Assembly: GCA_964658305.1 (NCBI GenBank)
Contig: OZ210885.1
Span: 6,882,001-6,946,000 of the forward strand
Direction of reading: 5' to 3'
DNA from: Leptogorgia sarmentosa
Taxonomy: Eukaryota
DNA length: 64,000 nucleotides
The notes under the pieces: model-generated
What the model was told of the DNA's origin: nothing
What the model saw: only the letters and a program-made list of their open reading frames with translations
Databases searched by the model: none
In this document: in pieces, positions 9,990 to 18,207 of the stretch
Position numbering within the stretch: position 1 is the stretch's first letter
How the letters are laid out: each line of letters begins with the position of its first letter
Position numbers and translations under genes: made by a program

Positions 9990-10073
9990 CACCCCGCCGT
10001 TAGGCAGGGTGACGAAAAATTAGTCTATAGACTCATTCTGTTGTTTTCCTCCACGGAAATCTTTAGTAAAAGG
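9990..10073 (-). ncRNA. RNU5: U5 snRNA 3' part (gene interrupted by Tx1 copy A)
   Basis: CCTTTTACTAAAGATTTCCGTGGAGGAAAAC..., Sm site AATTTTTCG, terminal hairpin CACCCTGCC/GGCGGGGTG. Confidence 0.93.
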
Positions 10074-12385
10074 ATTTTTAATAAAAGCCCACATGACAGA
10101 AATCGCCAAGGGGAATCAAATATTTACATATTTACATGAATACTCCATGTTCTAAATCAATAAATGTATCTTATTGTTCACTACTCTCGCTAATACACTA
10201 CGGACACACCATCTTACTTAAAATTGTTCTATGCTTAAAATATATTGTTCCATTTTCAACCTGGTTCGCACATAGTTTGTAAAATACAGTTCACAGTCGA
10301 TTTTCTCGTCTTTCTTGAATTGATACGATACACGCTGCTTCCACGCCGCGAACTTCCCCACACTCACCAGATACCGCAATAAATCCTTTGTTCGCCTTTG
10401 CGGAAAACAACCAAGTAAGATACTCTTCTCCCCGAAACCTACCACCGTTGGGTCAATCCGATTGCATAATGTCAATATAAAAGACCATAACTTCGCGATC
10501 CGCGGACAGTGAACTAACGTGTGCTCCAATGTCTCCACCCGAGCCCCACAGCAAGCACAGGCTGCCGATATCCGGGAATTCCATTGACTCATTCGTACAT
10601 TAACTGGTAAAACCCGATGAACCGTTCGCCAATCAAAATCCCGCAGCAGGGGATCATTCCAGCTTCCCGCAACCTCTTTCCAAATCTCATTCCACCTCAA
10701 CCCCGGGCCAAGCTGGCGATTCCAGATGTCCTCACATCGAGCCCGAACCGGGGTGACACAATTTCGAATTTTCTCCCCATAGAACGCATGTGATGACCGA
10801 CGACAAGAAATGTCCACATTAAACTCACGCAAAACACGAAGAAAGTGACTATAAAAAGGTGTTGGTATGTCACAATTTGGACGAGTGTTATCATTAAATC
10901 CCAGCATTCGATTTACGTAGTATCTCATCAGCTCTTTCCACGCGCAGTCTGGCTGTTCGGCGTCCAACAAACGAAAAAGCCGACCAATCAGGAGGGCTTT
11001 GCTCCTTGACCCCACATCCACAATGCCCAGACCACCAGCTGCATAACCTGACGTACATGTTTCTCGCCTCACCAACTCAGGTTTTTTAGACCACACAAAC
11101 TTCCAAATCGCCGACTGGATGGTATCGATAACTTCTCGGGATGGCGGATACACCTTCGCTACATGCCAGATGGTGGACACAGCAAGACTTTCAATAACCG
11201 TTTTTTTCCCCCTCAAAGTTAGGAAGCGAGATTCCCATTTCTTTAGTACCGAGTTAAACTTCGCTGTCACCTCGTCCCTGGACTTTGCACGTGCGTTTTC
11301 ATCCCCAAAATACAACCCAACTATCTTCAAACTCGAGCTTAGCCACGAAATACCACCAGGAGAGTCTTCTCTCATTCGCCACCGTCCAAGCCACAACCCA
11401 TGAGTCTTGGAGGTGTTCAGACGGGCACCCGAGGCTCGCCCATATTCATGAAAAATGTCGATCACTTTTAAAATGCCATACGAGTTGGTAACAATACAGG
11501 TATTATCATCTGCATACTGCGAAATTTTTACCTCACGACCTCCCGGAATCCGAAAACCGCTAATCTCGGAGCTTTTTCGAATCGCCTGCCCAAACACCTC
11601 GGCCACCAGTACAAACAGCAACGGGGATAGCGGACACCCTTGCCTTACGCCTCGCGCTACTTGAAAAGACGGAGAGACATATCCATTGGGCAAAATAGCA
11701 CTCTGGATATCTGTATATATACACTTGATCATTGCTCTAAATTTAGGCCCAAAGTTCATCTTTGCCAAAACCCGACCTAAGAAATCCCAGTCTACGTAAT
11801 CAAATGCTTTTTCCTGATCCATGGATAGAAAAGCACATGCCTGCCGTTCATGAACCTCTAGATAATCCGTGATGTCCCTTAAAATCGTTGCATTATCCTC
11901 ACTGGACCTCCCAGGCACCGAACAACACTGGTCCGAATCCACGACACTTGACATAACCGGCTTTACCCGATTAACCAATACTTTGGTGAGAATTTTGTAG
12001 TCCACATTCAGCACCGAGATAGGCCTCCAGTTTTTTAGGTATTCCGGATCATTCTTCTTAAACAGCAGTGTAATAATGGCCTGTCTCAAAGTGTCTGGCA
12101 TTACTCCATCCGAAAGACAATTGTTCAGCATCTCGAGCAAGTCGTCCTTCAGCAACTCCCAGAAGCACATGTAGAACTCTTTTGGAAGGCCATCCGACCC
12201 TGGCGTTTTCCCATTACGAAGTGTCTTTAATGCCGCAAGGCACTCCCCCTCAAGGAGATCACCTTCACAGGAGTTACTTTGTTCATCCGACAGCTTTCTA
12301 TCCAGCAGATCGAGCAAACGATCCTGGGCGCCCCGATCTGTAGGGACCGCGGAATATAATTCTTTATAAAATCGAACCTAATTCA
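10074..12385 (-). mobile_element. Tx1-clade non-LTR retrotransposon copy A, lacking ORF1 and endonuclease, inserted in U5 loop 1
   Basis: RT plus C-terminal zinc finger, 3' end ...GGGCTTTTATTAAAAAT, flanked by the two halves of U5. Confidence 0.92.
10218..12377 (-). CDS. Tx1 ORF2 C-terminal part (RT and zf-RVT)
   Basis: KTPGSDGLP, WRPISVLNVDYK, DQEKAFD, RQGCPLSP, QYADD, CACCG..ETLEHTLVHC. Homology to copy B extends back to VRFYKELY at ~12377. Confidence 0.92.
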   Translation of the reverse strand, partial: VRFYKELYSAVPTDRGAQDRLLDLLDRKLSDEQSNSCEGDLLEGECLAALKTLRNGKTPGSDGLPKEFYMCFWELLKDDLLEMLNNCLSDGVMPDTLRQAIITLLFKKNDPEYLKNWRPISVLNVDYKILTKVLVNRVKPVMSSVVDSDQCCSVPGRSSEDNATILRDITDYLEVHERQACAFLSMDQEKAFDYVDWDFLGRVLAKMNFGPKFRAMIKCIYTDIQSAILPNGYVSPSFQVARGVRQGCPLSPLLFVLVAEVFGQAIRKSSEISGFRIPGGREVKISQYADDNTCIVTNSYGILKVIDIFHEYGRASGARLNTSKTHGLWLGRWRMREDSPGGISWLSSSLKIVGLYFGDENARAKSRDEVTAKFNSVLKKWESRFLTLRGKKTVIESLAVSTIWHVAKVYPPSREVIDTIQSAIWKFVWSKKPELVRRETCTSGYAAGGLGIVDVGSRSKALLIGRLFRLLDAEQPDCAWKELMRYYVNRMLGFNDNTRPNCDIPTPFYSHFLRVLREFNVDISCRRSSHAFYGEKIRNCVTPVRARCEDIWNRQLGPGLRWNEIWKEVAGSWNDPLLRDFDWRTVHRVLPVNVRMSQWNSRISAACACCGARVETLEHTLVHCPRIAKLWSFILTLCNRIDPTVVGFGEKSILLGCFPQRRTKDLLRYLVSVGKFAAWKQRVSYQFKKDEKIDCELYFTNYVRTRLKMEQYILSIEQF

Positions 12386-12387
12386 CT

Positions 12388-12454
12388 TTCCTCCAAAAAA
12401 AATCTTTAGTAAAAGGCGAAAGATTTATACGCGGATTGAAGGAAAACCAGAGTT
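12388..12454 (-). ncRNA. RNU5: U5 snRNA 5' part upstream of Tx1 copy A, including duplicated target sequence
   Basis: AACTCTGGTTTTCCTTCAATCCGCGTATAAATCTTTCGCCTTTTACTAAAGATTT(TTTTT)GGAGGAAA. Confidence 0.92.
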
Positions 12455-16797: not shown

Positions 16798-16809
16798 CAA
16801 AATGTCCGG

Positions 16810-18168
16810 TTATTTCTTCTTCTTCGTTCGTTTCTTCTTGTGAGGTTTTGACCGAGCAGCCACAACACCAGCACCAACCCGTGCCGGTTCTACTTCCCCG
16901 TCCTCCGGCACTTCCTCAGGCAATGCCAATTCCGTATCCGCCTTTCTCTTGTTGTGATCCATTGCAACTGTTGCATCGACCTTTGGGGGTCCGCGGGGTA
17001 GGAAGAGTGGGTCCTCATCACTGGATACATCACCCATTTCCACATTTTCACTCTCGGATGAATCGCCGTTGCTGCTTGGTGGTGGGTCATTCGCCGCCGA
17101 CTCACGTGAATCATTAGCCGCCGAGTCACGTTGCTCGTTGTCATCGACCATTTCAGTATCCCGAGGAACTGAACTGTTCGTGGGGCACTCGGCCCTTAGA
17201 TGACCAAAGTCGCCACAGAGAAAACACTTGAAACATTGCCGGCGGACGTGTCCGTCTTTCCCACACCGAAAACACTTGACTTCGTTAATACAAGTAGCAA
17301 CTCTATGACCAAACAAGCCACATCGCCCGCATTGAGGAACTTGGCCACGATAACGCGTCTCGACCGGGTAGGGACCAATGAAGAAACGCCGAGGTATACC
17401 TTCAACTAGATCCAACATCGTTACAATTCTTGCCCCCGATTCCACAACAGCCCAATCACGATACATCTCACGGTTCACATTGACAACCTTGCCATACTTC
17501 GCCAACGATTCCGCCACAGCTTGGTTTGTTATTTCATTAGGAACGAACAATACTTTAACCTGCAAGGTGGGGGCATCAATCTCTTGAGCAATAATCCGCT
17601 CTCCCCTGAGCAGGATAGGATGATTTAAAAATAGCTGCTTAGCCTCGTATGTACGAAACGTGAGTCGATACCGCGGACCTGGAACTTGCTGGAGACATTT
17701 AATTGTCTCCAGTGCTGTATGCTTTAGAATAGCCTCCATCACCTCACGAACAGTAATGTTTTTAAAAGCTTGCGTATGTAAGACAACTGTATTCGGCCTT
17801 GGGACTCGTCCTCCCGAGAGGAAGGTCGGGAGAGGGACTGCATTTCCACGACCAGCCTGTACATCATTTCGCGCAGCAACTACATCTGCCCAGGATTGTC
17901 CACCAATTCCATCCGATACGCTACGTCCAGCATCACCACTGCGTCCAGACACCGCATCAGCAGGAACACGCCTTTCACCAGCTTCACCGGTCATCTCAAC
18001 ACCATTCCGCTGTTCCCTTGTACTGTCGCCTTCAACCCCTTCTCCAGCGCCCCCACGGCCTGAAACCACAGCTGCACGACTTGTAGTTGTATCCCCAACA
18101 GCACGACTTGAATCCCCAACAGCTGCTTCTACACCAGCACGACTTCCTTGATCCAATTTCTCCTCCAT
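16810..18168 (-). CDS. Tx1 ORF1 gag-like nucleic acid-binding protein
   Basis: RRM-like region, CGRCGLFGHRVATC, CFRCGKDGHVRRQC, CFLCGDFGHLRAEC, basic C-terminal tail. Confidence 0.92.
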   Translation of the reverse strand: MEEKLDQGSRAGVEAAVGDSSRAVGDTTTSRAAVVSGRGGAGEGVEGDSTREQRNGVEMTGEAGERRVPADAVSGRSGDAGRSVSDGIGGQSWADVVAARNDVQAGRGNAVPLPTFLSGGRVPRPNTVVLHTQAFKNITVREVMEAILKHTALETIKCLQQVPGPRYRLTFRTYEAKQLFLNHPILLRGERIIAQEIDAPTLQVKVLFVPNEITNQAVAESLAKYGKVVNVNREMYRDWAVVESGARIVTMLDLVEGIPRRFFIGPYPVETRYRGQVPQCGRCGLFGHRVATCINEVKCFRCGKDGHVRRQCFKCFLCGDFGHLRAECPTNSSVPRDTEMVDDNEQRDSAANDSRESAANDPPPSSNGDSSESENVEMGDVSSDEDPLFLPRGPPKVDATVAMDHNKRKADTELALPEEVPEDGEVEPARVGAGVVAARSKPHKKKRTKKKK

Positions 18169-18207
18169 GCGAAAGATTTATACGCGGATTGAAGGAAAAC
18201 CAGAGTT
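18169..18207 (-). ncRNA. RNU5: U5 snRNA 5' part directly abutting the ORF1 ATG of Tx1 copy B
   Basis: AACTCTGGTTTTCCTTCAATCCGCGTATAAATCTTTCGC|ATGGAGGAGAA. Confidence 0.92.

Follow-up and report, generated by a model that had tools for sequence, protein, structure and literature searches.

Two neighbouring U5 small nuclear RNA (snRNA) genes in a 64,000-nt stretch of the Leptogorgia sarmentosa genome (contig OZ210885.1, positions 6,882,001 to 6,946,000; the whole stretch is referred to as the window) were each found to carry a long interspersed nuclear element (LINE), named element A and element B, both in U5 sense orientation and both with their 3' junction at the same base of U5 loop 1. The two elements likely represent an old Tx1-type lineage that targets this loop, a reading to which we assign a probability of about 0.85. 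In minus-strand order, element A comes after the U5 promoter and nt 1-40 of the first gene and is succeeded by the same gene from nt 40 onwards; after a spacer come nt 1-56 of the second gene, a T-run with U5-like filler (together about 20 nt), then element B and U5 from nt 40 (Table 1). The 3' junction of A reads ...GGGCTTTTTATTAAAAAAT joined to CCTTTTACTAAAG at 13157/13156, and that of B reads ...GGGCTTTTATTAAAAAT joined to CCTTTTACTAAAG at 10074/10073. Both 3' ends consist of a common hairpin plus ATTAAAAA(A)T, placed immediately 5' of CCTTTTAC in loop 1; the junction falls between the G and the first C of GCCUUUUAC, 5' of nt 40 of the Rfam U5 match, and the bases around it agree with the Rfam U5 consensus. 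The common orientation and the single junction base, as claimed in the first-pass annotation, were read directly at these positions, and the peptides quoted there for the two ORF2 (second open reading frame) proteins were found in frames of the window; the range given for the feature, 9990..18207, falls short at one end, U5 nt 1 of the first gene being 18208, one base outside.

Both U5 genes of an inverted paralogous cluster in the same window are intact by Rfam (40214-40337 and 40988-41110), which made it possible to assign the interrupted genes: the 5' and 3' flanks of A are both of the 40214 type, those of B are both of the 40988 type, and a private variant, GGAGGAAA, is present on both sides of B. 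Alignment of 18169-19229 with 40253-39168 gave 88.8% identity and that of 12400-13156 with 41043-40253 gave 92.5%, both alignments ending at 40253. In contrast to these flanks, A and B are 67.5% identical over 2183 nt and 68.8% over 664 aa of ORF2, 71% of 188 four-fold sites differ, and NG86 yielded a dN of 0.24 with a dS near saturation and not estimable. The elements appear to have diverged under purifying selection, since codon positions 1, 2 and 3 are 70, 87 and 42% identical. Because the ORF2 silent sites are near-saturated while the U5 flanks match two different intact paralogues, A and B are, judged from their sequences, two independent insertions of two families in two U5 paralogues, in agreement with the earlier claim that the ORF2 proteins are divergent and that neither element is a segmental copy of the other. 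Assuming about 20 U5 copies and a 10^8-base genome, a rough estimate gives a probability near 1e-7 that a second, independent insertion would strike this base, on this strand, in any one of the U5 copies.

The search with ORF2 returned nine relatives at 50-95% identity, followed by a gap down to 37% or less. Element B is 81-82% identical to proteins P0168 and P0181 and only 69% to A; A, B, P0002, P0003, P0168 and P0181 formed a clade with support values of 100/99 in an IQ-TREE analysis of 40 rows, hand-picked from 121 of 127 reverse transcriptase (RT) regions after six that were too short had been dropped. In another host, too, two or more lineages probably occur together, because P0003- and P0168-type proteins share contigs, as judged from their equal length, and the A/B split would then predate the split of these hosts, given vertical descent. 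Named ORF1 relatives (4 of 32 matches, 44-61% identical) all came from the octocoral Paramuricea clavata, pointing to a cnidarian as the likely host. The endonuclease hairpin motif W[RQ]NKxx[TA]IxC was present in the eight core-clade rows checked and was different in P0005, P0009 and P0183. No loci related to the window elements were detected in viral or in metagenome contigs.

Core-clade members were concentrated on few contigs, as would be expected of array-targeting elements: the copies listed numbered at least 6 on 3 contigs (0.21 Mb), at least 13 on 7 (1.76 Mb) and at least 11 on 5 (0.66 Mb). Among the families outside the clade, at least 14 copies were listed on 14 contigs (14.8 Mb) for P0009, at least 15 on 15 (12.4 Mb) for P0077, at least 13 on 12 for P0043 and at least 10 on 8 (3.9 Mb) for P0048. 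All these counts refer to members on contigs over 10 kb, with at most 15 members considered per cluster and contigs equated by equal length. Within the window, both LINE copies lie in U5, and neither element has any further fragment there. Target-specific Tx1 families are defined in the excerpted text of Kojima 2015 (PMC4494074) by over 20% of the flanks sharing a target; for A and B the count covers the two window copies, both flanked by U5. The first-pass annotation had proposed an old lineage specialised on U5. Its age is borne out by the silent-site saturation and by the higher identity of B to proteins of other assemblies than to A, whereas specialisation is only likely, as indicated by the two window copies and, indirectly, by the clustering.

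Element A is a full-length copy that lacks a 5' untranslated region (UTR), its ORF1 ATG starting at the base next to U5 nt 40, and protein P0196 begins at the Met equivalent to this ORF1 start. The 3' end is devoid of a poly(A) tract. The best relatives of solved structure for ORF2 were the L1 ORF2p and the L1 endonuclease, with their catalytic motifs aligned, and the endonuclease hairpin loop has 9 residues as in L1, versus 11 in Tx1L. Element B is 5'-truncated and carries neither ORF1 nor endonuclease; its family has an endonuclease elsewhere (P0007, 99% over 328 aa). The open frame of B (10218-12377, 719 aa) is closed by a premature stop at 10218-10220, the true frame end lying at about 10152, and ORF2 of A contains one frameshift near 13575. 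Since the window differs from all the covering public runs at both places (four of four at 10220, three of three at 13575), the stop and the frameshift look private to this copy or assembly. The 3' hairpins of A and B, compared as two sequences, have 9 pairs, 2 of them with changes on both sides. The target duplication at the 5' junction of B is 17 nt when exact and ~30 nt if a CCG-to-TTTT change is allowed; the T-run and TGGAGGAAA that stand 3' of nt 1-56 of the second U5 gene may lengthen it to this extent. The 3' junction of B was bridged into U5 by a contig with 59 letters in one of four runs, and was crossed by two further contigs with only 24 and 27 letters (threshold 31).

Other LINE insertions in U5 were screened with a junction pattern consisting of a base other than G followed by U5 nt 40-59, which yielded no matches in viral contigs, 11 in metagenome contigs and one in genome contigs. 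The 11 metagenome matches comprised one LINE end (L002), four Rfam U5 variants, one weak U5-like piece and five sequences without U5 context. L002 (986-2507, minus strand) is a LINE in decay that belongs to a different clade, with 73% identity to P0048 and 23-34% to P0001. Its 3' end lies about 190 nt past the frame end and, oriented as A and B are, meets U5 at the base they use. It provides one junction, and its last 20 nt are faintly U5-stem-like. The genome-contig match was rejected as a junction, being a variant U5 unit, and the elements described below were found beside it by chance. U5 variants with a base other than G at the invariant loop position before CCUUUUAC were observed at L001, L003, L005, L007 and L010 and in one unit of this contig, five with A and one with C; the change from CG to CA fits CpG decay.

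The contig in question (G001:C7), an 82-kb eukaryote-like sequence in a bacterial genome bin, contains a U5 tandem array with a 436-nt period and 92 Rfam U5 matches, in which seven copies of a 5.5-kb LINE, four of them with an unbroken ORF2, replace loop 1. A poly(A) tail precedes seven of the 95 downstream anchors and loop 1 precedes the other 88, and seven of the 97 upstream anchors lead into the element. All seven copies show poly(A) joined to AAGATTTCC at the 3' end and start with TCTTTC-ACC-AGATTT, like a U5 head with loop 1 excised. About five separate insertions are likely, because the copies differ by 46-68 bases, except for three that differ by only 6-10. ORF2 of this family (cluster P0321, 297 members) is 32% identical to that of A. 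The C7 family resembles A and B in being a LINE with an apurinic endonuclease-like (APE) domain and an RT, inserted in U5 sense with its two junctions inside or beside loop 1; it differs from them in its poly(A) tail, in a 3' junction about 9 nt further downstream, in the loss of loop 1 at the site, in an AT-rich 5' UTR and in a different endonuclease hairpin. A poly(A) tail of the C7 type, joined at AAGATTTCC after loop 1, was absent from the A and B junctions. The contig was found through U5 and hence constitutes no test of the specificity of its family, and the array flanks held too few variants for a co-conversion signal. A search of 63 genomes around G001 yielded only this contig and a 27-28% identical LINE on G029:C17. 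The latter, a short contig in another bacterial bin and likely host DNA, carries two L1-like LINE copies (L019 and L021, at 7312-9897 and 16040-17017) that are 27-28% identical to P0001, with a 1254-aa frame and no Rfam match near them.

A clade made up of only the window core and C7 was rejected by the approximately unbiased (AU) test (p-AU 0.0018), whereas neither the wider 9-row clade as sister of C7 + P0067 (p-AU 0.35) nor a sister relation with the whole 8-row P0048 clade (p 0.23) was rejected. The grouping of the core six with P0048 alone (AU p 2e-48) is unfair, as it splits P0048 from near-identical kin, and all groupings were chosen after the trees had been seen. Convergence of the window lineage and the C7 family on U5 is likely, and ancestral U5 targeting with losses is possible.

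The surroundings of A and B, rich in segmental duplications of U5 and tRNA genes, would suit a single ancient insertion that was duplicated with its U5 cluster and whose copies then diverged. This scenario is refuted by the contrast between U5 flanks that are 93-99% identical to the intact paralogues and elements near silent-site saturation; A and B each have 95-99% identical relatives elsewhere, and their 5' junctions differ, so that a duplication origin is hardly tenable. Improbable too, if less remotely so, is a loose preference, in which loop 1 would be a fragile open site for many Tx1-type LINEs and most A/B copies would lie elsewhere. L002, where a distantly related LINE ends 3' at precisely this base and whose kin look largely dispersed (at least 10 copies on 8 contigs, 3.9 Mb), agrees with such a hot spot, as does the differing strictness of Utopia families described in the parts of PMC4640811 consulted; however, two of two LINE copies in 64 kb lie in U5 with no other A/B piece in the window, A/B relatives are clustered on contigs, and there was no loose end at the B 3' end among the 24 of 64 loose ends listed.

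A stronger competitor, though still a doubtful one, retains U5 targeting but moves the nick: the read-through RNA would end in CCUUUUACU, the cut would lie ~9 nt downstream (ACT/AAAG), as in the C7 family, and the apparent junction would be merely the end of element-specific sequence. The fixed 3' end without a poly(A) tract is compatible with this, and so are the seven C7 copies, which join U5 at poly(A) followed by AAGATTTCC and begin after TCTTTC, at most 2 nt from the A 5' junction. On the antisense strand the downstream site reads TTT/AG, near the L1 site TTTT/AA given in the excerpt of PMC1950540, and one contig of run X2 has an A tail that is 21 nt short and continues into U5 at AGATTTCC (weak, with side 30 and depth 11). 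However, a microhomology deletion could account for the X2 joint (element TTTTCACTA versus U5 TTTTACTA), the 1-nt and 17-nt duplications start at one C, as a nick at G/CC explains directly, and the exclusive clade of window core and C7 was rejected. Sequence comparison by itself would not separate a targeted nick at G/CC from read-through.

Several observations weigh against a U5-targeting lineage as proposed here, or against parts of it. Only two junctions of the A/B lineage, those of the window copies, were directly seen, and the closest outside relative, P0009/P0183 (51-55%), looks dispersed. The P0014 and P0075 clusters, which are outside the core clade and were excluded from the count, also have several members per contig. 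The run contigs at A and B may be the same locus in other individuals, and in run X1 the 70 letters past the B end were unplaced. The 3' hairpin rests on two sequences, no RNA-recognition motif (RRM) was found by Pfam in A ORF1, and A may simply be truncated at the ORF1 ATG, as an alternative to promoter borrowing.

If insertion is targeted as we propose, the endonuclease of the lineage would nick the U5 site and prime reverse transcription there (target-primed reverse transcription). The first nick would fall on the antisense strand, at 5'-AAAAGG/CGAAAG-3', unlike the L1 site TTTT/AA, and the ORF2 protein would recognise its own RNA through the 3' hairpin; according to PMC1950540, the endonuclease hairpin loop contributes to L1 target choice. 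The position of the second-strand cut would vary, leaving a 1-nt duplication for A and one of 17-30 nt for B. Because the ORF1 ATG directly follows U5 nt 40, A may borrow the U5 promoter, whose upstream region at A is 96% intact: there is about an even chance that full-length copies are promoterless, with transcription driven by the U5 promoter and U5 nt 1-40 serving as the 5' leader of ORF1. Sections of PMC4494074 describe a comparable arrangement for R2, co-transcribed with the 28S rRNA genes. The host would tolerate the loss of U5 genes by means of the remaining intact paralogues, two of which are in the window. A broader scheme, which we put forward only tentatively, is that U5 loop 1, the invariant loop that aligns exons, has been independently colonised by two or perhaps three Tx1-type lineages, if not more, using two sites that lie 9 nt from each other. 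The window lineage would then be promoterless, would use the U5 promoter and first 40 nt as mRNA leader, and would have maintained several coexisting families in the U5 clusters of different host species.

The domain anatomy (APE, RT, zinc finger) fits the Tx1 clade, and A ORF2 has the Tx1/L1-group architecture of APE endonuclease, RT and C-terminal cysteine-rich finger by Pfam. ORF1 variants such as that of A, with CCHC knuckles and neither an RRM nor a Transposase_22 match, fit Tx1 according to the excerpts of PMC5203782. The RT trees contained relatives without family names and were built without Tx1L, Keno, Mutsu or Dewa reference sequences; no named Tx1 reference appeared in protein searches with the window proteins or in the Atlas, which returned only generic RT/endonuclease clusters.

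The first-pass annotation had left undecided whether a U5-targeting Tx1 family was already catalogued; one is, since the Fig. 3 legend of Kojima 2015 (PMC4494074) gives 'U5, U5 snRNA' as a target in its list for known Tx1 families. Compared by this legend entry only, that family resembles A and B in being a Tx1-type LINE with U5 snRNA as target. Published descriptions of snRNA-targeting elements are few, and U5 is scarcely treated in them: the accessible text of PMC4640811, of the same year, mentions none as reported other than Keno, Utopia, Dada-U1 and Dada-U6. The literature listings described no U5-targeting LINE beyond the legend; subscription journals and Repbase Reports, which may name the family, were outside their scope. 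A U5-targeting LINE is thus already catalogued but little described, and A and B add a clear further example to it without introducing a new principle. Keno, a U2 snRNA-specific member of the Tx1 clade (Kojima and Fujiwara 2004, as cited in PMC4494074, PMC4640811 and PMC6136364), is likewise an APE-type LINE with a fixed insertion base, some 37-40 nt from the start of a spliceosomal snRNA gene, and destroys the copy that it enters, but its target is U2 (3' flank TCTGTTCTTATCAGTTTAAT). Rfam gave no U2 match in the window and the A/B flanks are U5, and A and B work like Keno but are not Keno. Several Utopia families are kept side by side in U2 arrays, as stated in portions of PMC4640811; the likeness to A and B lies in the coexistence of several divergent families within an snRNA gene cluster, in precise 3' and variable 5' junctions, and in parallel evolution onto one snRNA site, whereas Utopia has a restriction-like endonuclease and targets U2.

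Table 1. Coordinates of the interrupted U5 genes, of elements A and B and of the intact paralogous cluster in the window
Feature	Position	Strand	Support
Upstream (promoter) region and nt 1-40 (18208-18169) of first U5 gene, 40214 paralogue type	18169..18291	-	95.9% vs intact copy over 123 nt
Element A, full-length Tx1-type LINE, 5012 nt	13157..18168	-	1-nt target duplication (C)
A ORF1, 452 aa, three CCHC knuckles	16810..18168	-	Pfam zf-CCHC
A ORF2: APE endonuclease, RT (YADD), C-terminal zf-RVT	13343..16797	-	Pfam Exo_endo_phos, RVT_1, zf-RVT
A 3'-terminal hairpin, then TTTTTATTAAAAAAT	13173..13198	-	9 pairs
3' half (from nt 40) of first U5 gene, 40214 type	13070..13156	-	Comparison with intact paralogue
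Second U5 gene nt 1-56 (12455-12400), including 17-nt exact target duplication	12387..12455	-	Rfam match 12332-12455, 49.8 bits
Element B, LINE of second family, truncated at 5' end, with RT and zf-RVT	10074..12379	-	5' end approximate (~12379)
B 3'-terminal hairpin, then TTTTATTAAAAAT	10088..10113	-	Compared with A hairpin
3' half (from nt 40) of second U5 gene, 40988 type	9990..10073	-	98.9% over 91 nt
Inverted paralogous cluster (empty sites, two intact U5 genes), counterpart of the cluster filled by A and B	39168..41117	+	Rfam and alignments

Further features were observed in the window. A paralogous pair of U5 pseudogenes, at 18492-18591 (minus strand) and 39832-39931 (plus strand), is without the 5' stem and 13 nt across loop 1; the loop-1 loss is a deletion between short T runs, possibly a target-site repair scar duplicated with the cluster. 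Duplicated and inverted tRNA gene clusters (20873-24503, 37342-38707 and 41932-44245) are interleaved with the U5 clusters; ARAGORN identified 21 tRNA genes in the window, including a tRNA-Trp (21041-21122) with a 9-nt internal duplication. The body of a BEL/Pao-type long terminal repeat (LTR) retrotransposon (DUF1759, RT, Peptidase_A17, integrase and DUF5641, in three overlapping frames) occupies 2167-7521 on the minus strand and starts beside a tRNA-like piece at 7496-7557, with no LTR pair detected by blastn. A tandem array with a 61-nt period lies at 33791-34735.

The A/B locus opens no new kind of system. Its added value lies in a second site in loop 1, in two old coexisting families and in probable promoter borrowing, and it offers filled and empty paralogous sites together, with two long-diverged enzymes striking one base. 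The site lies in sequence that agrees with the Rfam U5 consensus, so the enzyme may be of interest for work on site-specific gene insertion, if nicking specificity is shown. Together, the A/B site and the C7 site 9 nt away provide a natural comparison of how APE endonucleases acquire specificity.

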